Positions 2,775 to 64,000 of a DNA stretch of 64,000 nt are shown here, piece by piece (the first letter of the stretch is position 1; the number at the start of each line of letters is the position of its first letter). The stretch spans positions 45,552 through 109,551 of the forward strand of contig CADCBB010000002.1 of NCBI GenBank assembly GCA_902799555.1. The letters are read 5' to 3'. This DNA is from an uncultured Bacteroidales bacterium. Its GTDB lineage: Bacteria > Bacteroidota > Bacteroidia > Bacteroidales > Paludibacteraceae. The notes under the pieces were generated by a model. The model saw only the letters and a program-made list of their open reading frames with translations, searched no databases and had not been told where the DNA came from. A program made the position numbers and the translations under genes.

Positions 2775-2805
2775 TTGTCTGTATCAAAAATTTTTTGTAT
2801 TTTTG
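2775..2805 (+). promoter_or_regulatory. Promoter (-33 TTG, 20-nt spacer, -7 TAnnTTTG) for hpt
   Basis: TTGTCTGTATCAAAAATTTTTTGTATTTTTG. Confidence 0.6.
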
Positions 2806-2833
2806 CAGCATCAATCCAAATAAAACACTATTC

Positions 2834-8861: not shown

Positions 8862-8892
8862 CAAAATTAGTAAAAAATTTGCATATATGCAA
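8862..8892 (-). promoter_or_regulatory. Promoter for the thioredoxin / nhaP2 / epimerase-like gene string
   Basis: TTGCATATATGCAAATTTTTTACTAATTTTG on the minus strand. Shares the palindrome TTGCATATATGCAA with the divergent promoter. Confidence 0.65.
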
Positions 8893-8909
8893 GAAATTTA
8901 GTAATTTTG
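8879..8909 (+). promoter_or_regulatory. Promoter for the OmpA-like / hypothetical / aroB string
   Basis: TTGCATATATGCAAGAAATTTAGTAATTTTG. Confidence 0.65.
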
Positions 8910-8917
8910 CGCTCGAA

Positions 8918-28482: not shown

Positions 28483-28517
28483 CCTTTCACCTTTCACTTT
28501 TCACTTTTCATTTTTCT
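28483..28517. repeat. Heptamer micro-array CCTTTCA / CTTTTCA x5
   Basis: CCTTTCA-CCTTTCA-CTTTTCA-CTTTTCA-TTTTTCT, between the convergent clpX and DUF4270 genes. Confidence 0.85.
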
Positions 28518-29931: not shown

Positions 29932-30769
29932 TCCCTTGTTGCAATAATGTCTGATAGAAATCATATTGGCGTTTGCATGCCACTACCACATCTTCCGTCT
30001 CTTCGTACGCCAGAATAGGCTTGCCTTTCGTCTCCGCATAATTGGCCACACGCTGATTCACCTTCGGAGTCCCATATACGATGGCATCGGAATAATCCAC
30101 CGCCAAGCGCATCAACTCCTCGTATCCTACCGGGAAATCAATGATGGAGCGTACATCCGTATTCGTGATGCCGTCAATACGCAGTTTCTCCGAGAACTTC
30201 GAATGGAAAGGCTTCTCGTATTCGTTATCATCCAGCATCAGCACGATCTTCGATTTGGCAAAGAACGGCTCATCGTTGAATGCTTTCTTCAGATATAACG
30301 GCGCTAACGCACTCATCCATCCCGAACACAAGATAACATCCGGCGTCCAGCGAAGTTTCTTCACCGTCTCTATTACGCCACGCGCATAGAAAATAACACG
30401 GTCATCATTATCAGCATATTCCACTCCATGCTCATCCTTCACGCCTTTACGACGATGGAATAAGTCATCATTGTCAATGAAATAAATCTGAATACGTGCG
30501 GTCTGAATAGACGCCACTTTGATTAACAAGGGATGATCCGAATCTTCGATGATCAGATTCATTCCCGATAGACGAATCACCTCGTGTAATTGATTGCGAC
30601 GCTCATTGATATCACCGAACTTAGGCATGAACGTACGCGTTTCAAAACCATGTCCCTGGAAGTACTCCGGAAGCTGACGATTGAGCTGACGGATAGGGGT
30701 CTCCTCCGCCAAATAAGGGTTTATCTCTTGCGAGATAAATAGGATACGTTTCGGCTCTTTCATAGGCAT
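29924..30769 (-). CDS. Short glycogen/starch synthase-like glycosyltransferase
   Basis: N-terminus KRILFISQEINPY is typical of the short Bacteroidota form. ATG 30769 lies downstream of a -7 box at 30788-30795. Confidence 0.7.
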   Translation of the reverse strand: MPMKEPKRILFISQEINPYLAEETPIRQLNRQLPEYFQGHGFETRTFMPKFGDINERRNQLHEVIRLSGMNLIIEDSDHPLLIKVASIQTARIQIYFIDNDDLFHRRKGVKDEHGVEYADNDDRVIFYARGVIETVKKLRWTPDVILCSGWMSALAPLYLKKAFNDEPFFAKSKIVLMLDDNEYEKPFHSKFSEKLRIDGITNTDVRSIIDFPVGYEELMRLAVDYSDAIVYGTPKVNQRVANYAETKGKPILAYEETEDVVVACKRQYDFYQTLLQQGNE

Positions 30770-50402: not shown

Positions 50403-50427
50403 TGCTAATATTTTAGCATTTTTTTTT
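50403..50427 (+). terminator. Terminator of the lipoprotein gene (second of twin hairpins)
   Basis: TGCTAA-tatt-TTAGCA followed by a T9 run. The exact reverse complement of this 16-mer lies at 50362-50377. Confidence 0.6.
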
Positions 50428-51460
50428 AGAAGTATTCTCTTACCGCAAATTCGTACTGATCAATGAAGATCTTTTTGAAGGCGTGCAGATTATTCTGTTC
50501 ATAGAAAATCAACATCGCTTTCTTATAATCAATCGAATCAACCGTGCGGAACGATAACGGGCAATAGCCGTTAGCAATCAGCAACGCGTTGCTTGTGATG
50601 CGCGCCGTGCGTTTATTCCCGTCCATAAAAGGCTGGATGTAACTGAGTAGCAAAAGTGCCAACAATGCTTTCTCAAACACGTTCGAGCGACTATTGATTA
50701 AGTTACATGTATCCCGCATGGCCTCGCGGATCTGAAACTCATTGTCCAGCGGTCGATATTGCGTGCCGGTTATACCGACTCGGCGATGACGTAGGCCTGT
50801 GTCTACCGATAGTTCTTTAGTAAGCAATTGATGAATATCTTCTATATGACTAATGGTCAACTCCTGCAAATAATCGGGATTATCCAATACAAAACGTAAT
50901 GCGTCTTTGTGATTTAGCAGCATCACCGCTTCCTCTTTCGTCTTACCGTCGGCAGTCTTACTCTCTCGCAGTAACCTTTCTGTCTCCAGTAGCGAATAAG
51001 TGTTACCTTCTATCTGCGAAGATTTCCAACTCAAATCAATACCCAACCGCTCCATCTCTTTGCGGTACTCGTTCTCACTCATATCCGCTAAATGCGCACG
51101 AAACTCTGCCTGCAATTCATTGAGTTGTTTCAACTCGTCTTCCGTAAATAAAGCTACATGAGGCATCTGCACGTTGATAAGCGCAAAGTTAAAACTTGTT
51201 TGCACCTGTCGGTCATCCACATCTTGTGCAAAATAGGTATCTAAATCAAGCGGCATTAACAAATGCGCACGATTAGATAAGGAATAACGCGTTGCACGTG
51301 CCTTCCCTTCCACGATAATATCACCATTTTCTACTCCTGCCGCGATAAGCCGTTTGAGCGTAGCATCGCTTTCTTGAAAACCGATACCTGCGCGAATATC
51401 CTCACGAGAAGACATAGGATGATAGTGCAAAAATTGCAGTATTTCACGAGCCGTTTCCAT
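50426..51460 (-). CDS. Fic/Fido-domain protein with degenerate catalytic motif
   Basis: Inhibitory-helix-like SSQIEGN. The core motif reads QPFMDGNKRTAR instead of HPFxxGNGRxxR. Confidence 0.8.
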   Translation of the reverse strand: METAREILQFLHYHPMSSREDIRAGIGFQESDATLKRLIAAGVENGDIIVEGKARATRYSLSNRAHLLMPLDLDTYFAQDVDDRQVQTSFNFALINVQMPHVALFTEDELKQLNELQAEFRAHLADMSENEYRKEMERLGIDLSWKSSQIEGNTYSLLETERLLRESKTADGKTKEEAVMLLNHKDALRFVLDNPDYLQELTISHIEDIHQLLTKELSVDTGLRHRRVGITGTQYRPLDNEFQIREAMRDTCNLINSRSNVFEKALLALLLLSYIQPFMDGNKRTARITSNALLIANGYCPLSFRTVDSIDYKKAMLIFYEQNNLHAFKKIFIDQYEFAVREYF

Positions 51461-51893: not shown

Positions 51894-52598
51894 ATGAAAA
51901 GAATCCTTATTATTCCGTTTTTATTGCTGTCCGTCTGCTTGATTGCAGGGGAACCACATCCGTATTACACCTCCCCGGAAATGCCGAATGCGTTGCATTA
52001 TCTGCCGGCACCTCCGCAGAGCAATGAGATGCGCTTCGCGTATGACACGGCGCAATATAACTGGGGCAAACGCATGCGTCCGACACCGCGCGGTGAGAAA
52101 GCACGCCTGGATGCAGAGTACAGTATTGATCGTATGGCGGCTATCTTCTCGCCGGTCATGGGCATAACCATTTCCGAGAAAAACACACCGCAGATATGGA
52201 AACTGCTGGTGGATGCTACCAAGACTGCGGATTTCGCATGCGATAGCGCCAAAATAACCTATATGCGCAAACGTCCTTATATGGTCTTCCATGAGCCGAC
52301 CCTGATGCCCGAAGATGAAGAGCCGCTGAGCCATAACGGTTCGTATCCTTCCGGCCATACGACACTCGGCTGGACGACGGCGCTCATCTTATGCGAGATC
52401 AATCCTGCCGCGCAAGACGCTTTGCTCAAAGAAGGCTTTGAATATGGTCAGAGTCGTGTCATTGCCGGTTTCCACTGGCAGAGTGATGTCGATGCCGCAC
52501 GCGTAGTCGCAAGTGCCGCTTTTGCACGTTTGCATACCAGCAAAGCATACCTCAAGCAATTGAAGAAAGCACAGCGAGAGTTCAAAAGGAAAAAATGA
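51894..52598 (+). CDS. Class A (PAP2) acid phosphatase, secreted
   Basis: Signature KITYMRKRP, PSGHT, SRVIAGFHWQSD. Signal peptide present. Confidence 0.85.
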   Translation: MKRILIIPFLLLSVCLIAGEPHPYYTSPEMPNALHYLPAPPQSNEMRFAYDTAQYNWGKRMRPTPRGEKARLDAEYSIDRMAAIFSPVMGITISEKNTPQIWKLLVDATKTADFACDSAKITYMRKRPYMVFHEPTLMPEDEEPLSHNGSYPSGHTTLGWTTALILCEINPAAQDALLKEGFEYGQSRVIAGFHWQSDVDAARVVASAAFARLHTSKAYLKQLKKAQREFKRKK

Positions 52599-53076
52599 GT
52601 GCGGTTTTTTTTCGATAGCGAAAAGCGAGGTAGCCGGCGGAGAGGAGCAAGAGGAAGAGCCAGGGTGTGTCGCCGATAGGCATCGGATCTTCTTCTTCTA
52701 CTTCTACTTCACCCATACCAGGACCGTCCGGATCAAAAGGATCGCCCATAAGTACGACCTCTCCACCCATAAGCGGCGTGTACTGCATATCGAATTTATC
52801 GGCATAAGCGGAGGTGGACCGGAAGCGCAAGACAGGAAAATCGGAGCGTCCTGCCAGCGGGTTCTTCGTAGTGCGAGAAGTAGTAGTGCCGTAAGTGCCC
52901 GGCGCAGTCATCGCGTGATAATTAGAGCCGTTCATCGTAGAGAGCGGTTGATAGCCCCATCCTTGCGAAGACGTGTTCCTGTCATAGGCGGACGCGATGG
53001 ACTGTGTGTAGCTTGCGCCACACAACAGCCATAGCATCAAAACATATCTTATTAAAACAAACTTATTTTTCATCAT
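52582..53076 (-). CDS. Hypothetical secreted protein with acidic stretch and C-terminal TM plus basic tail
   Basis: 164 aa. N-terminal signal peptide. C-terminus EVEVEEEDPMPIGDTPWLFLLLLSAGYLAFRYRKK. Lies 19 nt downstream of the giant ORF on the same strand. Confidence 0.55.
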   Translation of the reverse strand: MMKNKFVLIRYVLMLWLLCGASYTQSIASAYDRNTSSQGWGYQPLSTMNGSNYHAMTAPGTYGTTTSRTTKNPLAGRSDFPVLRFRSTSAYADKFDMQYTPLMGGEVVLMGDPFDPDGPGMGEVEVEEEDPMPIGDTPWLFLLLLSAGYLAFRYRKKTALIFSF

Positions 53077-53095: not shown

Positions 53096-56000
53096 TCATC
53101 TTATTTGTTGCCCGTAGATAGAGTACACATGTCCGTCCCTGAGGATGAAGACCTGTCCATTACGTATAAATTTCACAGCTGCAGCATCGTCCTCCCGGAG
53201 CGGAGTAAAGCCGGTAGTAACCGGATTCTCATCGTCCTGAGTTGGCACATATCCCGGACGGCGGATATAATAGCGCATCATATGGCTGGTCTCCGGTGTC
53301 TCGATCTCGAGGCATATACCATCAAGGATGGGTCGCTCGATATCCAAGAGCGCATCGTAGAGTACGAGGTCACCGTCTATATTATTGACGCCTGTGAACC
53401 AGAGATAGGAGTTCGGTTCAAACGGCAGTTCGCTATTATAGAAGGAGATCGGTACATTGACAATCTCGTCGCGCAGGTCAATGGACAATCCGCTATTTCC
53501 CTCCAAAGCGTAGATATTAAACGGCGTAGCCGGCGCATTGGTCATAGAGAAGTTATCAATATTGACCGTAGTCAGTACTGCATCCTCACCACTAAGCACT
53601 GCTTCGTTAAAGCCCTGACCGAGCAAGAGACGCGAGGTACAACGCGGCGAAGCGGGGTTCACCGCCGTGACGGTCATGATGCCTTTGGCAATTGGTCGTT
53701 GATCATTGGTCATTGCTAATCTGCGCGGTGCGGGTGCCGGATCTGGTACTGCTTCTCTTTGGCTGGCGTCCGTTACGATGCGATTCGTATTGAGGGTCAC
53801 CATCAGCGACGTCGTAGCTTTTTCGCTGTCTTTCAGTTTCAACTCTATCGCGTGCATCGGAGGCAAGTAACGCGAGAGAGAAGTGATCACGTCCTCTTCG
53901 ACAACGGCAGGTTTCGTTTTGGGTTGCCAGATACCATCTGCATCGATATATCGGAACTCGCCCTTCACTTTCTCACTATTATCCGCCAAGAAGCCCAGAA
54001 TATCGATATATCCCATGGTGGGGTTACCGAAGATGAAGGAGGTTGAAGCGGTCTCGTTCGTCAGGGTGTAGTCTTCGCTCGTAGCCGCTTTGCCCGGGTA
54101 GAACGCCATCTTGCCTACCTTGTCCGCACTACCGGCGCTCTTTGCACGTTCCGCACGCAAGCCGGACTCATAGCGAGACCAAACGACATTACCGGAGGTG
54201 GTGAAGTAATAATACACATCGTCGTTCTTCGGCAGGCGCACATCCGCCGGGTTGCCGGATTTGGTGCGCGAATAAACCGCCCATCCTTGTGCGGGTTTCA
54301 AAGGAAGCTTCATAGCGTTGGTAACCTTGGACCAATCGGCGGCGGAGGTAAAGGTAGAGTCTTTTTCCCTTGTATAACCTATTTTCTTCACCTCACGGCT
54401 GTAAAGCGAGAGCCAGAAGGTTGCGTTACCCGTATTGTAGTTACGTCCCGAAGCATCGAACGAACCTACTTCCCATAGCGGTGTCTCATTTCTCAGATCG
54501 GCGTTCGCCATGTAGAGATCGCCCGAAAGCAGTCCTTCTATCGGCGCAGTACGCAGAGCCCATTTCTGGTTCGGTGCGCTGAGATCGGCAATCACACTAT
54601 CGTATTCGAGGCGTTGCTGCTGACTAAGCGCCGCACCCGCGAGGAAGCGGATGGATTTGCATTTGTTGTACTGGAATCCAACCATTTGGATGGAATCCTC
54701 AAACGGAATTATCTCCGGTATAACCGGATAGGGTTTGCCATCCGTCATGGGCGGGATGAGCACGTGGGTGGTGGATAGCGGTGCAAAGTTCGCCGTCTCA
54801 TGAATCAACGTGTTATCCGGATTAATACCAATCCAGTTATCGGGATTGTTCCATCGGTTATCGTTCTCGTCATGCGGCTCCCAACGCAGGTAATCGGGTA
54901 CAACGCTGACGGTAAACGGCACAACACCTACCGGACATCCGTCTTCTCCGGCCCATCCAGACGCTCCGGACGAGGTCATCATCTCGATACCAAAAGTATA
55001 GCTATATCCTGGGCGCATGCGATAGTTGGTAGAAGGCGATGGTTCCACTATCAGCGTATCATTGCCGTTGGTGTAATAACTCGGGTTCTCCCCCGTTGTA
55101 CTCCAGGTTCTATCTGTTACGAGACCCAAGGTATGGATACCCTCCAGATATTCCGGATCATTAGTAGAGAGGAAGTCTATCTGCTTCAATGCCACTTTTC
55201 GGTTACCATACTCGTCGAGCATCAGCGAGTCAATCGGAATAGCCAACTCAGAATTGGCATGAGTCTCGTCCGCCAGCACGGTAATCGGTGTCCCTAACTC
55301 CGACTCCGGACGTTTCAAACCTCCGATAATCAGCGGAAGACCGCCACCTATACTCGACCCAAGAGAAATCTGGATAGGCGTCGGACAAACCTCTATATTC
55401 ATATCCTTCATCACCTCCGAGCCGGTACCCGGTATCGGGAAAATGGTATATTTAACCGTTGAATCCACCGGCGTTATAATCGATAGCGAGGATTTATAGA
55501 GGGTTAGATATCCTTTATTCACCAGATGCGAGAGGATCGTATAAGGGTGCACATCGCCTGTTATAGTAACATTTCTATCCAGCTGCACTTTTTTCATCTC
55601 TGTCCGGCTCACATCTGCAAAACTCTGCGCAAACTGGTTTGCATTGGTACCATACTCATTATCCACCCGAAGAATATCTCGAATGACTTTAACGATATCC
55701 TCATAGGCATAACCGTAGGTAGTTGCGCTGGTAGCCTTTGTGGTATCGCCATAGAGGAGCCAGTCGTTATAACACGTACCGGTGACCTCAATCGGTGCTA
55801 CACTATCGAGGAGCAGCGTACCTTTGACATGCAGCGAGACATCATAGGTCGTGTTATTACACATTTCCGTCACTTCTTTGTCAGGCTTCTCCTCACCGTT
55901 GAGGGTCAAGATAATACGGTTTCTCACCTTGAGCGAACGGGTCATGGCACACTTACTGGACATCAGCGTGTACTTAGAATTCGACATGTGAACCGTGTAC

Positions 56001-59000
56001 GTATGATCGCCCGACATCTTTGCGGAGTGGATAATATACAATACGGGTCGGATCGAGTCGTCAAGGTGCTCGTAGATATATCCCTCACGGAAGACAACTA
56101 CACTCGGATCCTCTACATGCGCATCTAAAGTCCTCTCAAATTTATTCACCAACTCCTGCAAGTTCGGGAAGATTGAATCGGCATGAAGCGGATGATAGTA
56201 TCTATCGGGCAAAGGAATCTTACCATAAAGCGTATCTTTGGTATGCGGGGGTACGGCTTTGATCGTATCCTCGTTGTAATACTGATCCTCTAATTTCAAG
56301 AAGGTCGTATCATTGGTTTTCGACACATCCATGATGGTATAGAACTCATTCGATATTTTTCCTTCAATATAAGCATCCTCGGTAAATCCCTGGTAGTCCA
56401 GACGGAGCACCACGTGGGTGAGCGAGTCAGCTTCGTTATCGGCTTTGCAAGTCGTGTTCGCCTGATAAACCATCAACGGCGGTTTGGTAGCAAAGATACG
56501 CATATCATCGATGATAAAGTCATTACCATCGTTATTGGATGCCATGTTAAATACGCGTACGCGATAATTGGTATAGTCTTTATCCATCTCTATCGGGAAA
56601 TAGATCTGGTACCATTTATTCGAAGGCTCCAAGTCACCGGTCATATAGGAAGTGACATCCGTCCATTTGCTACCATCCTTTGAACCTTGTACGGAGAAAA
56701 GGAAGTTCGGTCGTGCTTTATTGGAAGCAGTCTGGTTAGAGCAATTCCCCACATAGCCGGAGAAGTAGAGTTTCTGACCCTCGCATAGGTGAGACTCCAA
56801 GGAGAGGGCTGCTACCTGACCGGCAGAAGCCATACCGTCGCAGTAAATCATATAGCCATTCTCGGCACCGCCGTGCTGCTCCATTTTATGCCAATATTCC
56901 GAATACGGGATACGATTTACCAAGCCATACTCACCCATGTTCGGGAAATCCTCCTGAGCGTGTAAACGATTGTGTATAATGTTCAGGTTCAGAGGATAAG
57001 TAAATCCATACGAAGCGTCTGACCATTGCAACGGATGCGGATAGAGTTGATACTCTTTTCCGGGTTTGTTATAATCGAAGTTCAGTCGCTCCAACACATC
57101 GAAGTGCTCATCGATCTCTTCATTCGTAATAATCGCCTTACCGTTGGTCTCTATCTGCGGACCGAACTTCTCCTTGCGGTGATAGATAATGGTGTAGCGG
57201 CAGATATTATATACCGAGTCGCCTACGACAGGCTTATCTTCATCACCAGGTTCTCCACTTTGCGCTGTATAAACACTTTTAGCACGCAAACAGTAAATCA
57301 CGGTATCAACTCCCGAAGCAGAAGTGATATTCGTCTTTGCGTTCACGATGAGGAAGTCGTCGTCCTTGGTCGGTTTCGAGTCAATTCTGGTATAAGTATC
57401 CTCCTTTTTATTATAGATGTACCAGATACAATCGGCATCCCATCCGCCGCACCAGATCATGGAGTCCTTACGCGCATCATCCCAACCACCGGTGTACCAG
57501 TTGTCATCCTTCATGTAGTAGCCCAAAAGAGACTCCGAGTGTTGCTGGTCTCGAAGGTTATCATAGTTATAGCGTTGCTCAGTCTTTAGCAACAGACGAT
57601 TTCCTATCGGAGCACGTACCACATGATCCTCCATGTATTTCTGACCTGCATACTCCGCATCCTTATGGTATTTATAATGCTGCATCGTATCTGCCATCTC
57701 CGTCCAAGGGTGCAACTCGAAGACCTCGCGCAGCGAAAGTGTCGGCTCGGTAATCGTCCCCAGCGTATCAAGGACTGCCGTATCGACGTTATTGATATTT
57801 TTCATGGACAAGGGCAGGTTGTCGTAATAGTTACTGATATCTACTGCGTATGTCACCACTTTTTTATCAATAGGCGGATAGACCGAGGGGTTCTTAGCCG
57901 GCGGATCATTACGGGCACCATAATCAATCGATTTATTATGGAAGACCGTATAACGTCCTTGAGTGACATAAATAGAATCGGGTTGTCCGTCCTCGCCTTT
58001 TCGGGGATTAAGCACTTTACCTCCGATGGTATGGAAGGCGTAGTTCCATTTACCGGTATTGGTAGGACTAAATCCGGTCACCCACAACGAGTCGGGAAGG
58101 TCCATATCCGATACATCATTTTCTTTCTCATCTTTGCCCTCTCTATACCAACGCCACCAGCCGTAGAAGTTACGCTCACGAACTGGCAGTTCGACACGCT
58201 GATCCTCGGATTGTTCTCCGCCCGAAGCGTTATAGTAATAGAGGATGCGTTTATTCTCATGTACTTGCTGCACTCCATTTTTTAAGGTGTCGCCCGACGC
58301 TCCACCGGTATGGGTCAGTGTCTGGTTGCCGTCATAACTATATCGGCTTCTTTGCGACACACGAAGTTGGAAATTGACAAATCGCATTTTGCCATCGACG
58401 TTCAAGGTATATGCGATATAGATGTTGGCTGCACGAGGAGCACGTACACCATTCTCTTTGCATTGCACGGTGATTGTGTTCTTGCCTTTCCGTATGATCT
58501 CACACCAACCCGGCGTATTACCATACTCATCTATCAGACGAATCTCCGATAAATTAGGATTAGTGAAGTCCATATCTTTGGTATGATTATCTCCCGTACC
58601 GGTATAAGAAACCACGTGGTTTTCAACATCCAAGGTATTCGTACCCTTTCTGTGATAAGTATGCAGCACAAACTCAATCGTATCATTCTCGTCCTCGATA
58701 ATCACAGGCGGGAAAGTATAGTTATAGGCATCATCATCAACATAACATAGGAGCGAGTCGTACGGCGCCGTATGGTATGTTTTTCGGATAAGCGGAATCT
58801 TGAGATGCGCATCCTCGATGGACTTAAAACTGCTCCAATCGCCTTTGAAGCGGTACTCCGGAGCTTTGTCTTTGAGGGATATCTGCACATCGAGTGTATC
58901 AACGATATTGGTAGTATAAGCGCCCAGCGGACTGGAACCAGCCGGTGTTACCGTGGTAGTGAGTTCACTATCGGTCGTTCGGCTCAATCCGCTCGCTCCG

Positions 59001-62000
59001 GCACTGAAACGGCTGTCAGGGATAATCGTGATCGTCGTATCCGTCTTCCAATCACCGGTAAGCAGGTCCGCAAGATCATTCTCATCCTCACGACCGCAGT
59101 AGGTGAGCTTATTATTGATTAACATCGAGTAGATGCGGAAAGCCTTGTATCTCGTCTGGATGGAAGCACTCGTATTACTGTTATAGCCAAACTCCAGATA
59201 GGGCTTATTCGGATAAGCGCCATTGTTCGTAAGATTATACTCGTGGAGCAGATAGGTCCAAGAGAAGACCGTAGCATCGTCTTTTGTTGCAGTCACGGTC
59301 AGTTTCGGCTTTCCGGCTACCTCCGTGAGTTTCAGCCATGTATTAGTACCATACTTGAGTTTAACCTGCTCCTCGAAGTTCGAGTTCTCGTTCGTATAGA
59401 CATTCACATAATCATACGTCCATGCGGTCGGATCACTATCATCGAGGCGCGGTACATCTGCTGCTACAACGAGGTATTTGCCGATACCGTATTCGGTTTT
59501 CAGCGTTAATTGTTGAAGGGCTAGATTCACGTATTCATATTTCCACGGCGTGATATACTTGGTATCACTATTTCTTGCATCCGCCGAACCTTTCTCCAGT
59601 TGGGTCGCACCATCCTCTTTCTTGTAGAGCGTACCGCCTTTTTCCTCAAATTGGCGGAAGATGATTCCGGTATCACACGCCATAATGAAATAGCGTTTGT
59701 CGTTTAGGATACCAGACCATACCAACTCTGATTCCGCTAAGTCAATCTGCATCAAAGGTACTCTTCCTTCTATCGGATATACTACTTCGTCAATCGTAAC
59801 TTCACCATTGATGACGAGGGTATCGTGATTTAAGCCGGATGTATTATCCGCTGTCGTCTTGATGGTCACATAATCGTCACGCGTCTCTCCCTTCACCACG
59901 CTGAAATAAGCGGACGGACTACCGCTTGTGAACGAACAACCTCCCTCCGTTAACTGCAACGAAGAGGTGTAATCATTGAAACTTAATATCTCCTCTGCCA
60001 TCACTTTGCCATTCTCGTCCAATAGTTGGCGTGAACGCACTTTAGCGAGAGTAAAGTTCACCGTTTTTTTCGCATCAGCCAACGGGCTGAAGGTATAGGT
60101 TGGATAAACGGGGGTGAGCACCCATTTCTCCTGAATTGCACCGTGGTGAAAGGTATGGGTAAGGATAAGAATATCGCGATAGCGCGAGCCATCCGGGTTC
60201 ACATGCAGCCCCGGCGCACCTTCCTTCCAACGGCCGTAATACTCCTTGATATGACTATTCGCCATGGGGCGAAGCGTGATACGAAGTGTATCTACGATAT
60301 CAATGTAATTGCCTTGATATAATACATCTATCGGACTATTGACGCCCGAGGTGATCAAACGACCAAACTCGTCACCCACCTCGCTCATGTGAGGTTTATC
60401 CTCCTCGGCTACTATATCTAAGGACTCCACGCGCGAGTCGCGGATATAACTAAAGGTTTGCGCGATACGATAATCCTGGGAGAGCCACAGATCCGTCGCC
60501 GTCGTTTTCGTCTTCGCCTCATTCGGGTGGAAATAAACGATCTTATCGCCTATAGTCATCTGCAACATGAGTTGTTTACCTATCAGCTTAGACCATACCT
60601 CCTGTTCACTCTGCTCGCCGTGGTGATAATCGAAAACAATCTCATCAATCCACGGATTTTCTTTATCCGCGGTATCCGGCAGAATGACATAATGGGCATC
60701 TTTCACGCCCACACCGGAGAGCATAAAATCCGTTCCTTTGGCTTCCAAAGCCACACCATTAAAGGAGCGGTCGGAGGTGTTATACTGGATATAGGGTTCA
60801 TCGTGATTAGAGCGTTCTGCCTTTTCTATCGAAGCTACGTCACCGTCAAATCCTCTCAGATAGTGGGTCGAATAGAGCTTGGTACTATCTATACAGGGAT
60901 GCATCGGTTCAGGCCATCCTTCGGAGGATTTGAACAAACCCGCCCAAGTTGTATTTGCCAATATGGTATTCGGAGTTTGATAATACAAACCCGGATATTC
61001 CTCATTTTCCGGAGAGAAGTGCTCGTAGAAGATGACCGAATCGATAGCGCCTTTCACCGTCTCACGACGAGGATCAAAGACATAATCGTTCTCCACACAT
61101 TGCGTACACCCTTCGCCCAGACCTATCAATCGATAGGTAGTCAGATAGTGGGGGTCCACATTCTCTGCGTTCGCCATACCTTGCCAAGTGTTCGTCCAAT
61201 CCTCGATATAGCGGGCACGGGCAAAACGCGGAGCTGCCGTACCCGGGTGGGTCAAGAAATAGCGTTTTCCATCCGTGGGGTGAAGGAAAGAGATAGCGAT
61301 TTCGATACCGCCTTTGTACTCCGCGATGGCATATAGAGTTTGATTATGTACGGTGTTGAGGTTGATTGAGTCGCCGGGGTGATAAGTCGTGCCCTTACCA
61401 TCCGCCGCTGTATTCCACTCCTTAAAATCATATCCCTGAAGCAGACGAGGCGCTTGTACTTCCACTTTCGTTTTTCCATGAAAGGGATAACCGGTAGCGA
61501 TGGTATCGCCGAAGTGACCATTATTGTCATACTTAACCGAACGGGTTTGATCTGCCGGCACGAACTCCAGACCGCCGTTAGGAGTGCTCTTATTGGTATA
61601 AACGCGCGCCCAACCGTAACAGCCTACGATAGATGCTCGTCCGTCCGTCACGTGAATACTCGTACCCGGCACCATCTCACTCCATCCCTTAATATCAAAG
61701 CCCTCGTCGGTCGGACTATATTCCGAACCCGAATAGAGCGTCGCCTTGATGGAGAGGGCTACGTGCTCTGCCGTGATTAGCCACATCTCGTTACAGATCC
61801 AGGAGGTATCTCCCGACTCCGGGTGCATCTCAACGTTTCGTCCCGTATTGGTTCGCAGGAACACTCCCGCCGGACGGAAATAGACATCGAGGTTATCTTT
61901 GCTCGTCTGGGTTGTATCAATGATCATGCGACCATAAGCACCCCGCGGAGCAGAAAGACCGTCCATGTATTGAAGCGGCAGTTCCCCTAACTTCGTAAAC

Positions 62001-63172
62001 ATCGAATTGAAGTCATCCCCAGCCGATATGCTGCAATATTTATCTTTGTAGCCCACATAGTAATACACGCTATCGAGATCCGGTACATTCATCCAATCGG
62101 TCTGATAGTATTTCGTGTCGCCCTGACGCGACATGCAAATCTGATGATCGATGGTGTAGATCTTCTTCTTTGTTGCCGTACTATCACTGGCGTACTGTGG
62201 CCAGTTCTGTGTGGTTCGGTATTTCTTATAATCCTGCTCGTTAAAAGCGAAGTAGTACGAGTCCGGACAGGAGGACTCGTACGGATCATCGAGCATATAG
62301 AGACGGAAGAGCGTACGCTGCGTCGGTTTGTGCTTGGGATCTGCAAAAGCATATAAGGCCTGACCGGAACTGGCGGTTTCTTTCTTATCGCCGTCAACAG
62401 CATAATTTACAGACTTTGTAGTCGTATTGAATCCCACCAATGAGGCATTGGTATAGGAATAGGGCGGGTTGCTTTTAGGAATATCCAGCCAATAGACCTC
62501 ACGATAGGGCAAGCCCAAGAAGCCATGCCCTTTTGCGCCGTTAATACGACCATCATCATCTTGATCCGGTTTTATTCCTGCTGCTTTTAAGGTCTTATTC
62601 GGGTCAAAAGACGTAACCGACGCATCCTTGGTCGGAAAAACAAAAACCACATCTGCTATACTACCATCATCTCTCAAACTGTTCGGACCGCGCTTCACTA
62701 ACGCTCCTAGCGTCTTAAAAGTACTAGATATCTGGATAGTCGAAGGGTCTTGACCTTGGATGCCGGAAGGACTCCACATGGTATAAGCAATACCACCTAA
62801 CTGTCTCGTCAAAGTACGAGTCGTGGCAGTATCAATTGTCCAGATAGATGCTGCTGACGGCTCCGTCGCGCCGGCATCTTGCGGAATCAACCTAAGATAA
62901 TTTGAGTTTTTATACTTAAAACGACCACCACTATAACCCTTGTAGTGACAGACGAAATACTCCACGTCGGGCGTGGCAGGATTGTTGTCATCATCAATCA
63001 TCGTGGACAGCAAAATACGGTCACTCTGTTTGAGGTTGACCACGAGACCACCATCGGTAGGCGTAAAACCGACACCGTACGTTCCTATAGAGACAAATAG
63101 TATAGAAATCAACAGCAGAATTCGTACCCTACAAAGACAAACATTCTTTAAATTTAAACAGACAATATTCAT
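53096..63172 (-). CDS. Giant secreted protein, 3358 aa, function unknown
   Basis: A single uninterrupted 10,077-nt ORF with an N-terminal hydrophobic signal (RILLLISILFVSIGTYG) and its own promoter block at 63205-63235. Only a few short module-like stretches are recognisable. Confidence 0.85.
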   Translation of the reverse strand: MNIVCLNLKNVCLCRVRILLLISILFVSIGTYGVGFTPTDGGLVVNLKQSDRILLSTMIDDDNNPATPDVEYFVCHYKGYSGGRFKYKNSNYLRLIPQDAGATEPSAASIWTIDTATTRTLTRQLGGIAYTMWSPSGIQGQDPSTIQISSTFKTLGALVKRGPNSLRDDGSIADVVFVFPTKDASVTSFDPNKTLKAAGIKPDQDDDGRINGAKGHGFLGLPYREVYWLDIPKSNPPYSYTNASLVGFNTTTKSVNYAVDGDKKETASSGQALYAFADPKHKPTQRTLFRLYMLDDPYESSCPDSYYFAFNEQDYKKYRTTQNWPQYASDSTATKKKIYTIDHQICMSRQGDTKYYQTDWMNVPDLDSVYYYVGYKDKYCSISAGDDFNSMFTKLGELPLQYMDGLSAPRGAYGRMIIDTTQTSKDNLDVYFRPAGVFLRTNTGRNVEMHPESGDTSWICNEMWLITAEHVALSIKATLYSGSEYSPTDEGFDIKGWSEMVPGTSIHVTDGRASIVGCYGWARVYTNKSTPNGGLEFVPADQTRSVKYDNNGHFGDTIATGYPFHGKTKVEVQAPRLLQGYDFKEWNTAADGKGTTYHPGDSINLNTVHNQTLYAIAEYKGGIEIAISFLHPTDGKRYFLTHPGTAAPRFARARYIEDWTNTWQGMANAENVDPHYLTTYRLIGLGEGCTQCVENDYVFDPRRETVKGAIDSVIFYEHFSPENEEYPGLYYQTPNTILANTTWAGLFKSSEGWPEPMHPCIDSTKLYSTHYLRGFDGDVASIEKAERSNHDEPYIQYNTSDRSFNGVALEAKGTDFMLSGVGVKDAHYVILPDTADKENPWIDEIVFDYHHGEQSEQEVWSKLIGKQLMLQMTIGDKIVYFHPNEAKTKTTATDLWLSQDYRIAQTFSYIRDSRVESLDIVAEEDKPHMSEVGDEFGRLITSGVNSPIDVLYQGNYIDIVDTLRITLRPMANSHIKEYYGRWKEGAPGLHVNPDGSRYRDILILTHTFHHGAIQEKWVLTPVYPTYTFSPLADAKKTVNFTLAKVRSRQLLDENGKVMAEEILSFNDYTSSLQLTEGGCSFTSGSPSAYFSVVKGETRDDYVTIKTTADNTSGLNHDTLVINGEVTIDEVVYPIEGRVPLMQIDLAESELVWSGILNDKRYFIMACDTGIIFRQFEEKGGTLYKKEDGATQLEKGSADARNSDTKYITPWKYEYVNLALQQLTLKTEYGIGKYLVVAADVPRLDDSDPTAWTYDYVNVYTNENSNFEEQVKLKYGTNTWLKLTEVAGKPKLTVTATKDDATVFSWTYLLHEYNLTNNGAYPNKPYLEFGYNSNTSASIQTRYKAFRIYSMLINNKLTYCGREDENDLADLLTGDWKTDTTITIIPDSRFSAGASGLSRTTDSELTTTVTPAGSSPLGAYTTNIVDTLDVQISLKDKAPEYRFKGDWSSFKSIEDAHLKIPLIRKTYHTAPYDSLLCYVDDDAYNYTFPPVIIEDENDTIEFVLHTYHRKGTNTLDVENHVVSYTGTGDNHTKDMDFTNPNLSEIRLIDEYGNTPGWCEIIRKGKNTITVQCKENGVRAPRAANIYIAYTLNVDGKMRFVNFQLRVSQRSRYSYDGNQTLTHTGGASGDTLKNGVQQVHENKRILYYYNASGGEQSEDQRVELPVRERNFYGWWRWYREGKDEKENDVSDMDLPDSLWVTGFSPTNTGKWNYAFHTIGGKVLNPRKGEDGQPDSIYVTQGRYTVFHNKSIDYGARNDPPAKNPSVYPPIDKKVVTYAVDISNYYDNLPLSMKNINNVDTAVLDTLGTITEPTLSLREVFELHPWTEMADTMQHYKYHKDAEYAGQKYMEDHVVRAPIGNRLLLKTEQRYNYDNLRDQQHSESLLGYYMKDDNWYTGGWDDARKDSMIWCGGWDADCIWYIYNKKEDTYTRIDSKPTKDDDFLIVNAKTNITSASGVDTVIYCLRAKSVYTAQSGEPGDEDKPVVGDSVYNICRYTIIYHRKEKFGPQIETNGKAIITNEEIDEHFDVLERLNFDYNKPGKEYQLYPHPLQWSDASYGFTYPLNLNIIHNRLHAQEDFPNMGEYGLVNRIPYSEYWHKMEQHGGAENGYMIYCDGMASAGQVAALSLESHLCEGQKLYFSGYVGNCSNQTASNKARPNFLFSVQGSKDGSKWTDVTSYMTGDLEPSNKWYQIYFPIEMDKDYTNYRVRVFNMASNNDGNDFIIDDMRIFATKPPLMVYQANTTCKADNEADSLTHVVLRLDYQGFTEDAYIEGKISNEFYTIMDVSKTNDTTFLKLEDQYYNEDTIKAVPPHTKDTLYGKIPLPDRYYHPLHADSIFPNLQELVNKFERTLDAHVEDPSVVVFREGYIYEHLDDSIRPVLYIIHSAKMSGDHTYTVHMSNSKYTLMSSKCAMTRSLKVRNRIILTLNGEEKPDKEVTEMCNNTTYDVSLHVKGTLLLDSVAPIEVTGTCYNDWLLYGDTTKATSATTYGYAYEDIVKVIRDILRVDNEYGTNANQFAQSFADVSRTEMKKVQLDRNVTITGDVHPYTILSHLVNKGYLTLYKSSLSIITPVDSTVKYTIFPIPGTGSEVMKDMNIEVCPTPIQISLGSSIGGGLPLIIGGLKRPESELGTPITVLADETHANSELAIPIDSLMLDEYGNRKVALKQIDFLSTNDPEYLEGIHTLGLVTDRTWSTTGENPSYYTNGNDTLIVEPSPSTNYRMRPGYSYTFGIEMMTSSGASGWAGEDGCPVGVVPFTVSVVPDYLRWEPHDENDNRWNNPDNWIGINPDNTLIHETANFAPLSTTHVLIPPMTDGKPYPVIPEIIPFEDSIQMVGFQYNKCKSIRFLAGAALSQQQRLEYDSVIADLSAPNQKWALRTAPIEGLLSGDLYMANADLRNETPLWEVGSFDASGRNYNTGNATFWLSLYSREVKKIGYTREKDSTFTSAADWSKVTNAMKLPLKPAQGWAVYSRTKSGNPADVRLPKNDDVYYYFTTSGNVVWSRYESGLRAERAKSAGSADKVGKMAFYPGKAATSEDYTLTNETASTSFIFGNPTMGYIDILGFLADNSEKVKGEFRYIDADGIWQPKTKPAVVEEDVITSLSRYLPPMHAIELKLKDSEKATTSLMVTLNTNRIVTDASQREAVPDPAPAPRRLAMTNDQRPIAKGIMTVTAVNPASPRCTSRLLLGQGFNEAVLSGEDAVLTTVNIDNFSMTNAPATPFNIYALEGNSGLSIDLRDEIVNVPISFYNSELPFEPNSYLWFTGVNNIDGDLVLYDALLDIERPILDGICLEIETPETSHMMRYYIRRPGYVPTQDDENPVTTGFTPLREDDAAAVKFIRNGQVFILRDGHVYSIYGQQIR
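56483..57040 (-). other. Jelly-roll / carbohydrate-binding-like module inside giant ORF (aa ~2045-2230)
   Basis: HGGAENGYMIYCDG...KLYFSGYVGN...NFLFSVQG...WYQIYF...YRVRVFNMASNNDGNDFIIDDMRIF. The terminal GNDFxIDD strand is typical of beta-sandwich binding modules in large Bacteroidota surface proteins (recollection). Confidence 0.45.
58373..58570 (-). other. BACON-like module inside giant ORF (aa ~1535-1600)
   Basis: PGWCEIIRKGKNTITVQCKENGVRAPRAANIYIAY resembles the W...tv.v..N....R.a.i pattern of BACON domains. Weak call made by eye. Confidence 0.35.
61316..61537 (-). other. Listeria-Bacteroides repeat-like module inside giant ORF (aa 546-619)
   Basis: VKYDNNGHFGD...GYDFKEWNTAADGKGTTYHPGDSINLNTVHNQTLYAIAEY fits the GYxFxGW...tLYAxW pattern. 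Confidence 0.55.
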
Positions 63173-63204
63173 ATCATTTTGATTGTTTATGCGTTAAAAG
63201 TGTG

Positions 63205-63235
63205 CAAAGGTACACAAAAATGCCCACTCACGCAA
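63205..63235 (-). promoter_or_regulatory. Promoter for the giant ORF
   Basis: TTGCGTGAGTGGGCATTTTTGTGTACCTTTG on the minus strand. Overlaps the terminator hairpin of the upstream AraC gene. Confidence 0.55.
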
Positions 63236-63243
63236 GTGCGGGC
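63216..63243 (-). terminator. Imperfect hairpin terminator of the AraC-family gene
   Basis: Minus strand GCCCGCACT-tgcgtg-AGTGGGC (2-nt bulge) followed by ATTTTTG. Confidence 0.45.
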
Positions 63244-63290
63244 GGGCGTTTTTGTACTAAAGTTAAGAAAAATGGGTAATTTTTTACGAA

Positions 63291-64000
63291 TCATCTATTA
63301 TTCGCACACCATTCACTCGGCGTCTCGCCGGTTTCGCGGGCGAAGATACGGGAGAAGACGACCGGGGAAGAGAAGCCGCATTGCTCAGCGATATCCTGCA
63401 TCTTGAGATCCGGCTTTTCTTTCATCAATCGCTTCGCTTCTTCGATGCGGTAATTGGTAACATATTGATAAAAAGTGCAGTCGTATTCAGCATGGATGAG
63501 TTGACTCAAGTAGGTTCGGTTCAGCGGCAGAATCTGACGCAGATCATTCAAACGGAACTCCGGATTAAGATACGGCTTCTCCGTCTTCATCCACTGCTCT
63601 AACTTCTCGCGGTACTCCGAATTGGGCTCTATTTCCGTCACTTCTTCTTCTTCTTCTTCTTCTGCATTTTCTATCCATGGTTTGGCATGGAAGATGATCT
63701 GGTCATTGGTATAGATGATGACGAAGAACATCAACCATTGTTGGGTGAAAAGACGCGTGGGTTCGTCCGAGAAACAAAGATAGGTGTACGATATGCCTAA
63801 TACCAGCGTCATCTGCAGATAGCGAATCACCCATTTCTCATCCGTTTGCTCCACCGAGCCGTAGTTCTCCTCGGCGTGCCGACGGTAGTAATGCAGGTGC
63901 CTGAACAACAGCGCCACCCATACCACCGGAACAAGCGCCAAGAGCCACCTTAGGTCCCAAGGAACAAACCAGTCTATCAATCCGATAATCACTACCGGCA
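63291..64000 (-). CDS. Membrane-embedded AraC-family regulator, partial (N-terminus beyond window end)
   Basis: Frame open to the window end. The C-terminal half is highly similar to the 19059-20219 product (EQWMKTEKPYLNPEFRL, NRTYLSQLI, YRIEEAK, DIAEQCGFSSP). Glu7 linker. Confidence 0.75.
   Translation of the reverse strand, partial: PVVIIGLIDWFVPWDLRWLLALVPVVWVALLFRHLHYYRRHAEENYGSVEQTDEKWVIRYLQMTLVLGISYTYLCFSDEPTRLFTQQWLMFFVIIYTNDQIIFHAKPWIENAEEEEEEEVTEIEPNSEYREKLEQWMKTEKPYLNPEFRLNDLRQILPLNRTYLSQLIHAEYDCTFYQYVTNYRIEEAKRLMKEKPDLKMQDIAEQCGFSSPVVFSRIFARETGETPSEWCANNR
63642..63662 (-). repeat. (GAA)7 trinucleotide repeat encoding Glu7 in the AraC-family linker
   Basis: Seven consecutive TTC on the plus strand. 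Confidence 0.9.

Follow-up and report, generated by a model that had tools for sequence, protein, structure and literature searches.

Several described systems resemble parts of the locus reported here. In Flavobacterium johnsoniae, the very large surface protein SprB has a type B C-terminal domain (CTD), and next to its gene lies that of a PorP/SprF-like partner, SprF. [quoted passage not shown] In the CTD of P. gingivalis cargo, the beta3-beta4 loop and the C-terminal motif are reported to be relevant for secretion (PMC11285876), and T9SS-secreted, multi-modular CAZymes that degrade fibre have been described in another uncultured rumen Bacteroidetes lineage (PMC5831590). Our literature search found nothing specific on cargo-specific T9SS accessory proteins or on the T9SS cargo of rumen Paludibacteraceae.

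The window analysed here, the whole 64-kb stretch of DNA from an uncultured member of the Paludibacteraceae, contains on its minus strand an ORF of 3358 codons (53096..63172) that begins with ATG and has no internal stops. We call its product the giant. The original prediction had described this uninterrupted ORF together with a 164-aa neighbor, and both are present and intact as described. The ten largest other ORFs of the window are housekeeping genes.

Orthologues of the giant occur at 75 genome loci, all in ruminant Paludibacteraceae MAGs, and comprise 58 intact full-length copies. Full-length orthologues are tightly conserved in length (3284-3454 aa) and are 54%-97% identical, the upper value being that of locus L001 compared with the window locus. 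Identity per 50-aa window along the family ranges from 37% to 81% and is even over the length. Two dN/dS estimates for the gene, 0.28 and 0.20, indicate uniform purifying selection along the whole length; when the gene is divided into sixths, dN/dS is <0.4 in each sixth with enough synonymous differences for an estimate. The giant is a conserved, presumably secreted protein of rumen Paludibacteraceae. That it is instead a decaying or mis-assembled gene, a polymorphic toxin, or a contact-dependent effector seems to us highly improbable. Eight of the 75 loci do have a split ORF, and dS along the gene forms a mosaic, which indicates recombination; however, the split copies come from draft MAGs, in which faulty assembly can produce frameshifts, and the end of the protein is neither toxin- nor immunity-like and is the most conserved part rather than a variable one. 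Conservation, the large majority of intact copies, and the low dN/dS largely refute this reading.

The orthologues fall into two paralogous clades, A and B, often both found in one genome; at least 12 MAGs have one copy of each. It might be supposed that the two giants co-assemble into a lattice, an S-layer-like coat on the outer membrane comparable to that of TfsA and TfsB, with the small neighbor acting in assembly or anchoring. The paired copies would fit such a coat, as would the tight length and uniform purifying selection, which are unusual for adhesins under diversifying pressure, and the S-layer protein SbsB is found among the Foldseek matches of the C-terminal third of the giant (rank 3, probability 0.69). 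However, the TM-score of the SbsB match is only 0.08-0.12, amid generic Ig-array matches; the clade A and clade B genes are not co-located; and the wider family described below varies greatly in length and architecture, one member (P0402) having duplicated head and CBM units. On our analysis, a coat of this kind is unlikely.

The N terminus of the giant, MNIVCLNLKNVCLCRVRILLLISILFVSIGTYG, has a signal-like hydrophobic core with family-wide conservation. Read directly from the sequence, the signal peptide comprises a basic n-region and the core VRILLLISILFVSIG, which appears in the family consensus as VRILLLISVLF, so the hydrophobic N-terminal signal noted earlier holds for the family as well. 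Sequence inspection finds no lipobox Cys after this core. No SusC/SusD genes lie in the flanks of four other loci (L001 and L003-L005) or among the conserved neighbors of 72 loci; domain searches and flank inspection likewise bear out the earlier statement that SusC/SusD neighbors, YD/RHS repeats, and a toxin-like end are absent. We rejected a PUL surface glycan-binding lipoprotein on the missing lipobox and the SusC/SusD-free flanks. Coordinates of all features are given in Table 1.

Table 1. Features of the giant protein and of the adjoining genes; nucleotide positions refer to the window
Feature	Residues (aa)	Nucleotides (strand)	Basis
Sec-type signal peptide	1-33	63074..63172 (-)	hydrophobic core read from sequence
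Lineage-specific N-terminal extension	34-1580	58433..63073 (-)	coverage map, 149 relatives on family HMM
InlB B-repeat (Listeria-Bacteroides repeat, PF09479, Flg_new)	546-615	61328-61537	Pfam match
Ancient duplication	~838-1080 vs ~1370-1580	59933-60661 vs 58433-59065	profile-window self-search
BACON-like Ig unit, sub-threshold	1552-1588	58409..58519 (-)	Pfam PF13004
Beta-rich head	~1616-2040	57053..58327 (-)	P0168 alignment and AF2 secondary structure
Predicted CBM-like beta-jelly roll ending GNDFIIDDMRIF	~2045-2230	56483..57040 (-)	AF2 model m803ccdb544d3 and Foldseek
Chain of Ig/FN3-like beta-sandwich domains with two helical inserts	~2231-3150	53723..56482 (-)	AF2, Foldseek
WNNPDNW...IPP stretch, inside Ig-like chain	2774-2807		invariant columns
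GNPTMGYIDI motif, inside Ig-like chain	~3049-3058		invariant columns
Pre-CTD beta domain ending RYYIRR (~165 aa)	~3160-3305	53258..53695 (-)	window identity, relatives' alignment
Short C-terminal tail KFIRNGQVFILRDGHVYSIYGQQIR	3333-3358	53099..53176 (-)	alignment with canonical-CTD relatives
164-aa partner, start codon 19 nt downstream of the giant's stop		52582..53076 (-)	
Regulator-giant spacer, 118 nt: GC-rich imperfect hairpin and T-run, then TACCTTTG		63173..63290 (-)	read from sequence
AraC/XylS-type membrane regulator, C-terminal 233 aa (start beyond window end)		63291..64000 (-)	HTH_18, HTH_AraC

By using the aa 2228-3358 profile to search representative clusters (50%-identity representatives), we found 1451 clusters at E ≤ 1e-3 and 624 at E ≤ 1e-30, which match through their C-terminal ~1200 aa. 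Giant residues ~1600-3300 form a core common to at least 1451 protein clusters, mostly of 1500-2700 aa. One relative of 1598 aa, P0168, aligns to giant aa 1616-3060, its alignment starting at the giant's head and right behind its own signal peptide. Most of the ~140 relatives listed have canonical ends of the ...KVIVK type, and TIGR04183 scores above its cut-off in four of five relatives tested (P0293, P0316, P0348, and P0345); proteins with a canonical CTD also occur on contigs of related MAGs (L041 and L023), an indirect hint that T9SS machinery (Sov/SprA, PorK/L/M/N, PorU/V) may be encoded in such genomes. In this wider family, Pfam and NCBIfam models recognize the C-terminal sorting domain only. 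Judged by these alignments, the giant belongs, as a long and lineage-specific form, to a very large family of T9SS type A cargo that has so far gone unannotated. The original prediction could match it to no described system; this view is not supported for the C-terminal ~1750 aa. The giant's ancestral core (~1750 aa) runs from a beta-rich head through a CBM-like jelly roll and an Ig-like chain to a pre-CTD domain.

The N-terminal extension, by contrast with this core, is essentially missing from the wider family: across the 149 mapped relatives, coverage begins only at position ~1400-1600 of the giant-family HMM. The InlB B-repeat predicted within it at aa 546-619 is recovered by PF09479 over nearly the same residues (E = 2.2e-6; 28.1 bits, against a Pfam gathering score of 27) and is found in 14 of 14 family members tested. 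A BACON-like unit had also been proposed. Its match in the window giant is weak (E = 0.07; 13.5 bits against a gathering score of 25); the unit nevertheless reappears at this position in 11 of the 14 members, with a best E-value of 8.7e-5. Self-BLAST of the giant gives no internal match at E ≤ 1 and TRF finds no tandem repeats inside the ORF, which agrees with the earlier observation that long internal repeats are lacking and led us to reject a tandem-repeat giant adhesin (Ig/cadherin/BapA-like), there being no near-identical repeats. Only profiles reveal an ancient internal duplication, of aa ~838-1076 with ~1371-1523 (E = 1e-13). The ~1500 N-terminal residues, with the InlB B-repeat, the BACON-like unit, and the duplicated module, were gained in this lineage.

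Across the whole giant, Pfam and NCBIfam models match nothing besides Flg_new and the weak BACON unit, and a PDB sequence search with a profile of 40 full-length giants gives a best E-value of 0.06, which is spurious. An AF2 model of the head and jelly-roll region (aa 1600-2240) is all-beta, with moderate confidence (mean pLDDT 64), and its Foldseek matches are dominated by CBMs. The jelly roll, whose confidently modeled part is aa ~2108-2230, matches CBM22, CBM4-2, other beta-sandwich CBMs, domain III of Cry toxins, and MAM domains with a Foldseek probability of 1.00 (126-167 aligned columns; TM relative to the target ~0.45-0.54). No CAZy-type CBM or CBM Pfam sequence model matches the giant or 14 family members; related Pfam matches are confined to F5_F8_type_C (E = 0.07) and Reelin subrepeat-B, each in one of the 14. 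In the model, the giant thus has a jelly-roll beta-sandwich fold resembling CBM4/6/22, and the jelly-roll-like module read from the sequence at the outset can be specified as a CBM-type one.

The head, with the motifs FYGWWRW, EPTLSLRE, and HSESLLGYYM, is strongly conserved: invariant His, Asp, Glu, and Arg positions are common to the giant and P0168, although the two are only 26% identical. This conservation and the position of the head directly N-terminal of the CBM-like module, the usual order of catalytic domain and CBM, are what would be expected if the head, or part of the N-terminal extension, were a new catalytic domain (e.g., a glycanase or lyase) of an extracellular enzyme, and multi-modular T9SS CAZymes are reported from the rumen (PMC5831590). 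Against this, Pfam, NCBIfam, and PDB sequence searches with the window giant, the 14 members, and the family profile reveal no catalytic family; the Foldseek matches of the all-beta model for aa 1600-2240 include no enzyme fold beyond CBM-like parts of enzymes; and we identified no catalytic motif in the giant. We regard an enzymatic role as decidedly improbable.

C-terminal to the jelly roll, the AF2 model of the last 1131 aa (m1b209c2d8b3e; mean pLDDT 73.7) matches generic Ig/FN3 arrays only (TM < 0.15), which is too unspecific for a family name. Within the chain, the WNNPDNW stretch, earlier likened to motifs of large Bacteroidota surface proteins, is invariant among the giants and present in distant relatives; Pfam gives no match for the last 609 aa, which cover it. 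The most conserved part of the giant is the pre-CTD domain, with 50-aa windows at 80%-81% identity, and it aligns to relatives immediately before their CTD. The pre-CTD HMM also matches a partner-linked protein of 709 aa (E = 8.6e-5) and partner-linked proteins of 880/1070 aa (E = 6.4e-4); hhalign of the C-terminal giant profile against the 709-aa protein gives a probability of 6%. Many Cys residues are invariant in the giant family. Since the fold is CBM-like, an Ig-like chain follows, and the relatives are T9SS cargo, the giant is a Sec-exported, largely beta-rich, and non-repetitive protein that is plausibly surface-located and glycan-binding, much as the original prediction supposed.

The C-terminal tail differs from that of most relatives. 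A scan for T9SS CTDs had been proposed, and TIGR04183, TIGR04131 (NCBIfam), and PF18962 (Pfam) give no match to the window giant at E ≤ 1; the last ~26 aa nonetheless align to strands 1-2 of the relatives' type A CTD. Comparison of HMM end coordinates with those of TIGR04183 places the remaining ~38 aa of the CTD as missing. The alignments indicate that in this lineage the canonical CTD has been cut to its first two strands. Six tail residues are invariant among the giants (K3334, G3339, R3345, G3347, Y3350, and G3354), and the short tail also occurs on unrelated proteins of these MAGs, such as a CotH-domain protein, which makes an active sorting signal more likely than a relic. As the CTD models fail and the beta3-beta4 loop and C-terminal motif are missing, the giant is no more than a putative substrate of T9SS export.

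The 164-aa gene that had been described as tightly linked and tail-anchored is a conserved partner, adjoining the giant in 70 of 72 loci. Its product has a signal peptide, a Ser/Thr/Gly-rich disordered region (with WGYQP and RFRSTS), an acidic patch, PIGDTPW, a hydrophobic helix of ~15 residues, and the tail RYRKK. Partners in general are ~100-250 aa long and disordered, with a signal peptide, xFRSTS in the disordered region, P(V/I)G(D/E), a single C-terminal TM helix, and a basic tail. Their start codons lie between -34 and +23 nt from the giant's stop codon, overlapping it by 4 nt in 24 of 58 cases. A homologous partner adjoins six of seven distant relatives, the seventh being without an adjacent one, and relatives that retain a full CTD are accompanied by the same type of partner, so the partner is no substitute for secretion. 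In the loci examined, the P(V/I)G(D/E) motif is found only on proteins encoded beside cargo genes with a pre-CTD domain. PEP-CTERM, GlyGly-CTERM, and other CTERM models give no match to five partners beyond noise at E ~ 0.1, and those matches (GlyGly- and JDVT-CTERM) concern a single partner protein.

These observations bear on whether the giant leaves the periplasm. If the truncated CTD did not support T9SS export, the partner might tether the giant at the inner membrane, for example, as part of an envelope-spanning scaffold. The failure of the CTD models and the loss of two thirds of the domain would agree with this, as would the partner's signal peptide, C-terminal TM helix, and basic tail, which predict an inner-membrane anchor with a periplasmic body; the invariant Cys residues fit an oxidizing compartment. 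On the other hand, the short tail is strongly conserved at the six invariant positions and is shared with unrelated proteins, which suggests active sorting; modules of the CBM, InlB-repeat, and BACON types typically belong to surface proteins; and a partner of the same kind also goes with relatives whose CTD is complete. A periplasmic giant is accordingly distinctly unlikely in our judgment.

Upstream on the same strand, the membrane AraC-type regulator noted at the outset, encoded by an ORF at 63291..63992 that the window end truncates, is recognized by HTH_18 (E = 5.5e-20; 71.9 bits, cut-off 33.6) and HTH_AraC (E = 6e-12; 45.8 bits, cut-off 26.6). The full-length copy in L001 (392 aa) has a hydrophobic N-terminal domain and also matches both models. 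A poly-Glu linker in the regulator is encoded by (CTT)7.7 at 63641-63663. The regulator directly precedes the giant at 24 of 53 loci (clade A, 19 of 27; clade B, five of 26) and is absent beside the distant relatives examined. Of the three-gene unit proposed originally, the partner linkage therefore stands, but the regulator is not a general member. A promoter block of the gene's own had also been claimed. The Bacteroides -7 consensus is TAnnTTTG, and TACCTTTG in the spacer fits this motif and is a putative promoter. The hairpin and T-run can be read as well, but a generic sigma-70/terminator scanner flagged neither hairpin nor TACCTTTG; this scanner is uninformative for a Bacteroidota promoter.

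Taken together, we propose that the giant is a Sec-exported, elongated cell-surface protein of the T9SS type A family that binds glycans or fibre and has a dedicated accessory partner, a proposal to which we give about an even chance of being correct. The giant would sit on the cell surface or be shed from it, and its CBM-like module and extended Ig-like stalk may there bind plant or host glycans or particles. Such a role is supported by the CBM fold, the Ig-like chain, the InlB B-repeat, and the location of one distant relative next to a GH5 cellulase and an SGBP-B-like gene. The partner would be made in step with the giant and serve as a dedicated membrane-anchored accessory, either export escort or anchor; its positive C-terminal tail predicts an inner-membrane location, which speaks more for an escort than for a surface anchor. 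It probably acts through the pre-CTD domain, since this is the only element common to all partner-linked proteins. In clade A, transcription may be controlled by the membrane-embedded AraC-type regulator.

A broader reading is more tentative, and we consider it possible though rather doubtful: giant and partner would form an unrecognized, widespread two-gene module of Bacteroidota, in which large envelope proteins marked by the ~165-aa pre-CTD domain are paired with a small partner that carries a new C-terminal sorting-type signal (P(V/I)G(D/E), TM helix, basic tail) and is needed for export, processing, or anchoring of the cargo. The ~26-residue mini-CTD would be a distinct sorting tag, common to unrelated proteins, that replaces the CTD in rumen Paludibacteraceae and some other lineages. 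If true, either the T9SS would recognize such cargo in a variant way, or the cargo would cross the outer membrane by another path.

A single giant gene occupies 10 kb, and in many rumen Paludibacteraceae there are two per genome. Since the carriers count among the uncultured, fibre-associated bacteria of the ruminant microbiome, the giant is a strong candidate for mediating adhesion to plant particles or host glycans. With the core family defined, many large T9SS cargo proteins now listed as "hypothetical" could be annotated (>1000 50%-identity clusters). The near-obligate partner and the truncated CTD raise questions on the recognition, escort, and anchoring of type IX cargo that, to our knowledge, work on P. 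gingivalis or Flavobacterium has not raised.

Among known systems, the SGBPs and CBM proteins of Bacteroidota PULs share with the giant a CBM-like jelly roll and BACON-like and Ig-like modules; however, the giant is roughly five to ten times larger than an SGBP and no lipoprotein, and no SusC/SusD pair lies near any Paludibacteraceae locus. The partner recalls PEP-CTERM/exosortase, GlyGly-CTERM/rhombosortase, and LPXTG/sortase substrates in its Pro/Gly/acidic motif followed by a hydrophobic helix and a basic cluster, in the Ser/Thr-rich low-complexity region before the motif, and in its N-terminal signal peptide; unlike them, its motif is P(V/I)G(D/E)(P/T), and the loci examined contain no broad substrate set; we identified no sortase-type enzyme. 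Like TfsA and TfsB, the giants are two paralogous large envelope proteins of a T9SS family per genome, with Ig-like beta-sandwich domains (by description), although they are ~3 times longer and encoded at separate loci. The locus resembles the SprB/SprF system in that a dedicated accessory gene lies behind the gene for a very large surface protein and reappears beside every paralogous cargo gene. However, SprF-like partners are outer-membrane beta-barrels, whereas the giant's partner is disordered with one TM helix, and SprB is built of repeats, whereas the giant is non-repetitive. We rejected cargo with a type B CTD because the giant has no TIGR04131 match and its neighbor is a single-TM disordered protein and not PorP/SprF-like. 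The closest likeness is to T9SS type A cargo such as P. gingivalis RgpB. The giant departs from it in keeping only ~26 of ~70 CTD residues and in failing both CTD models, and we know of no conserved adjacent small membrane partner described for such cargo. It shares with this cargo the Sec signal peptide, the multi-domain beta-rich body, and a conserved Ig-like domain directly before the C-terminal signal; hundreds of relatives of its body end in canonical type A CTDs, to whose strands 1-2 its own tail aligns.

[quoted passage not shown] When the C-terminal third of a protein from clade B, one of the two paralogous groups of Paludibacteraceae giants, was used as query, it found the relative P0168 (1598 aa, pig-gut metagenomes). 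This protein is 22% identical to aa 1616-3060 of the giant, in an alignment that begins directly past its signal peptide, and its C terminus is a classical T9SS C-terminal sorting domain (CTD; ...VYVVEVRTENGVSNNKVIVK). When a profile of aa 2228-3358 was run exhaustively against 1.84 billion representatives, 1451 clusters reached E<=1e-3, of which 1100 passed E<=1e-10 and 624 passed E<=1e-30. Most have a length of 1500-2700 aa and match through their C-terminal ~1200 residues. Among 149 relatives mapped on the full-length family HMM, the common region extends from position ~1400-1600 to ~3300, and the giant's N-terminal ~1400-1600 residues are, in essence, restricted to Paludibacteraceae giants. 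The type A CTD model TIGR04183 is passed by four of the five relatives scanned, the fifth lying just under the cut-off, and no other Pfam or NCBIfam domain was recognised in these five; most of the ~140 relatives listed have the look of a canonical type A CTD at their C terminus. Given the common region and the CTDs of the relatives, the giant is best read as a lengthened form within a large family of T9SS type A cargo that is so far unannotated, and this replaces the original prediction that it could not be matched to a described system.

The giant gene is conserved and under selection, and its product is a predicted secreted protein. With one genome scanned per species, 75 giant loci were found, all from ruminant MAGs (cattle, sheep, goat, yak, buffalo, and deer) assigned to Paludibacteraceae or "uncultured Bacteroidales." Most contain an intact ORF of 3284-3454 aa. 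The ORF is split in eight, of which one contains any N (8 bases), and in draft MAGs such splits are indistinguishable from assembly error. The giants form two clades, A (55-85% identical to the window protein, itself a member) and B (48-52%), and a second homologue search found clade B equally large; in at least 12 MAGs both clades are present, with a single copy each, on different contigs. The first homologue search gave 359 clusters, the best 120 of which are all 3061-3414 aa long, with 54-97% identity at >=90% query coverage, and are either unnamed or called "hypothetical protein [Paludibacteraceae bacterium]." Identity is even over the full length (37-81% per 50-aa window), and indels are few. 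The dN/dS ratio is 0.28 against the 97% orthologue and 0.20 against the 85% orthologue, and is <0.4 in each sixth of the gene with enough synonymous differences for an estimate. Synonymous divergence from locus L001 is 0 over the last third of the gene (~1100 codons) and 0.06-0.11 over the first four sixths; from locus L006, dS is 1.4 in the last sixth and 0.26-0.56 elsewhere. This sharp mosaic suggests recombination between strains.

At the N terminus, a basic stretch precedes a hydrophobic core (VRILLLISILFVSIG), and since no Cys follows this core the predicted signal reads as signal-peptidase-I type rather than lipoprotein. Among the modules named in the original prediction, the Listeria-Bacteroides repeat (aa 546-615) scores above the Pfam cut-off and occurs in 14 out of 14 family members. 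The BACON-like unit (aa 1552-1588) is recurrent in 11 of the 14 but stays sub-threshold in the window protein. The protein is non-repetitive, as had been stated: self-BLAST gives no match at E<=1 and TRF none inside the ORF, and one old duplication (aa ~838-1076 versus ~1371-1523) becomes visible only by profile-level search. A PDB sequence-profile search was negative. In structural models, the giant has CBM-like and Ig-like modules. The AlphaFold2 model of aa 1600-2240 (pLDDT 64, pTM 0.70) is beta-rich, and for its C-terminal part Foldseek gives matches of probability 1.00 to CBM22, CBM4-2, and further beta-sandwich CBMs, as well as to Cry-toxin domain III and MAM domains (126-167 columns, target TM-score ~0.5), so that the suspected jelly roll ending GNDFIIDDMRIF is confirmed as CBM-like. 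No fold was identified by this model and Foldseek for the head region, aa ~1616-2040, where a rival explanation places a new enzyme. The model of aa 2228-3358 (38 sequences, mean pLDDT 73.7) shows beta-sandwich domains strung in a chain, plus two helical inserts, and is matched by Foldseek to generic Ig/FN3 arrays only (cytokine receptors, cadherins, and the S-layer protein SbsB), all with low TM-scores. In another rival account, the two paralogues together would build an S-layer-like coat.

The C-terminal regions align on a conserved beta domain, the pre-CTD domain (aa ~3160-3305, ending RYYIRR), that is common to all. After a variable linker, the last ~26 residues of the giant (KFIRNGQVFILRDGHVYSIYGQQIR) correspond to strands one and two of the CTD in the relatives, among them the "vYD..G..v" strand, and the giant ends where a canonical CTD runs on for ~38 residues. 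No CTD model matches this C terminus; by alignment, the CTD of the giant is truncated. A minority of distant relatives have the same ending (P0289, P0302, P0318, P0332, P0333, P0385, P0398, and P0415). A ~25-aa tag, K.I.NG.L.I.R.G..Y...G..V, whose alignment to the type A CTD likewise covers only its first two strands, ends several unrelated Paludibacteraceae MAG proteins, one with a CotH domain. Canonical-CTD proteins are encoded on contigs of the same MAGs as the giants, for example, a 2339-aa family member in locus L041. A P. gingivalis study (PMC11285876) reports the beta3-beta4 loop and the C-terminal motif of the CTD as relevant for T9SS function. The short tail has neither, and may act as a variant T9SS signal or as a tag of some other kind. 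A further rival holds that T9SS is no longer used and that the giant is periplasmic or tethered to the inner membrane.

The small downstream gene, which we call the partner, is the sole universally conserved neighbour of the giant, present in 70 of the 72 loci whose flanking ORFs were clustered. It starts between -34 and +23 nt from the giant stop in all 58 scored cases, and overlaps the giant gene by 4 nt in 24 of them, which suggests translational coupling. The 58 distinct partner sequences have in common a signal peptide, a Ser/Thr/Gly/Pro-rich region bearing the motifs W(G)Y.P and (Y/N)(Q)FRSTS, in many cases GPRR as well, and a patch of acidic residues (DDDPIG). At their C terminus, a strikingly conserved P(V/I)G(D/E)(P/T) precedes a hydrophobic helix of ~15 residues and a basic tail. 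This layout resembles a PEP-CTERM- or LPXTG-type sorting signal; none of the CTERM models matches the five partners tested.

The partner is near-obligate for giants, and a homologue also adjoins six of the seven distant relatives looked up, downstream of P0168, P0361, P0293, and P0295 and upstream of P0345 and P0304. None lies beside the seventh, P0443 (2733 aa), whose gene directly follows those of an SGBP-B-like protein and a BACON-GH5 cellulase, a glycan-utilisation context. In L041 (MAG RUG14367), the 2339-aa member has its own 144-aa partner and lies directly upstream of the AraC regulator and a clade B giant, which makes this locus a cluster of three cargo/partner-type genes. Two loci encode much smaller InlB-repeat proteins (709 aa and 880/1070 aa), each followed by a partner-type small gene. 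A pre-CTD HMM built from 133 relatives matches both weakly at the expected position (E = 8.6e-5 and 6.4e-4, respectively), and this domain is the only part that they share with the giant. On these profile matches, the pre-CTD domain is the single element common to all partner-linked proteins.

Coordinates of features in the window and in compared genome loci
Feature	Sequence	Position	Strand	Remark
Giant ORF	window	53096..63172	-	ATG start, 3358 codons, uninterrupted
Partner gene	window	52582..53076	-	164-aa ORF, start 19 nt past giant stop
~25-aa C-terminal tag	window	53099-53176		giant
~25-aa C-terminal tag	L004	20222-22075 (entry coordinates)		
~25-aa C-terminal tag	L005	28621-29307 (entry coordinates)		
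~25-aa C-terminal tag	L023	2553-4310 (entry coordinates)		
~25-aa C-terminal tag	L038	84-2576 (entry coordinates)		
~25-aa C-terminal tag	L062	2087-4648 (entry coordinates)		
Third family member	L041	81-7100		2339 aa, canonical T9SS CTD
Partner of third member	L041	7097-7531		144 aa, 4-nt overlap
InlB-repeat protein	L023	16657-19154		709 aa
InlB-repeat protein	L005	24227-27846	-	880/1070 aa
P0443 locus	L085	1-2632		
Fic-domain gene	window	50426-51460	-	
PAP2 phosphatase gene	window	51894-52598	+	
(CTT)7.7 array	window	63641-63663		perfect
Small-gene run	L001	2527-6829		
Small-gene run	L003	4368-8331		
DUF4270 protein	window	28516-29964		entry coordinates
OmpA-family protein	window	8879-10552		557 aa, entry coordinates

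The original prediction had joined regulator, giant, and small gene in a three-gene unit without SusC/SusD neighbours. The flanking ORFs of the 72 loci bear out the latter point, with no SusC/SusD genes, no secretion genes, and no further conserved neighbours. As the small gene alone is constant, the stable unit is one of two genes, to which the AraC regulator is a frequent, lineage-restricted addition. The AraC-type ORF lies 118 nt upstream of the giant on the same strand, carries HTH_18 and HTH_AraC domains, and runs off the end of the window; the full regulator, seen in locus L001 (97% identical), is 392 aa long and comprises a hydrophobic N-terminal domain, a poly-Glu linker, and a C-terminal HTH. 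Linkage of this membrane regulator to the giants is partial: Among loci with enough upstream sequence, it is directly upstream in 19 of 27 for clade A and five of 26 for clade B. The linker between membrane domain and HTH is encoded by an in-frame CTT array that could vary in length.

In both the window and L001, a Fic-domain gene and a PAP2 phosphatase gene separate the partner from a conserved PRK-PriA-TK-RecJ block. Locus L003, which is 62% identical, lacks both at the corresponding place, and the pair thus has the look of a local insertion. Upstream of the AraC gene, past the window end, L001 and L003 have a syntenic, divergently oriented run of small genes (~70-210 aa, no Pfam match, plus one DUF3791 gene). 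This run is not among the neighbours conserved over all loci and may reflect mere genome relatedness. Elsewhere in the window the content is that of an ordinary chromosome (GH3, phosphoglucomutase, Na/H exchanger, SecDF, PEP carboxykinase, and topoisomerase), with a DUF4270 protein and an OmpA-family protein; none of the ten largest ORFs was recognised as a T9SS gene.

From sequence, models, and gene context, we infer that the giant may be displayed at the cell surface, where it would bind glycans or particles, and that the partner could act on the pre-CTD domain as an escort or anchor; sequence and gene context suggest that the AraC regulator would control expression. Surface display and binding would fit the rumen habitat and the T9SS-secreted fibre-degrading enzymes reported from another uncultured rumen Bacteroidetes lineage (PMC5831590). 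Readings of the giant as a toxin, PUL-SGBP, tandem-repeat adhesin, or pseudogene were rejected, their defining features being missing.

No prior description of the ~1750-aa unannotated core family, the small P(V/I)G(D/E)-TM partner, or the ~26-residue truncated CTD tag is known or came up in literature searches. These three elements would be what is new here, set against the large surface proteins of the T9SS family that are already known.
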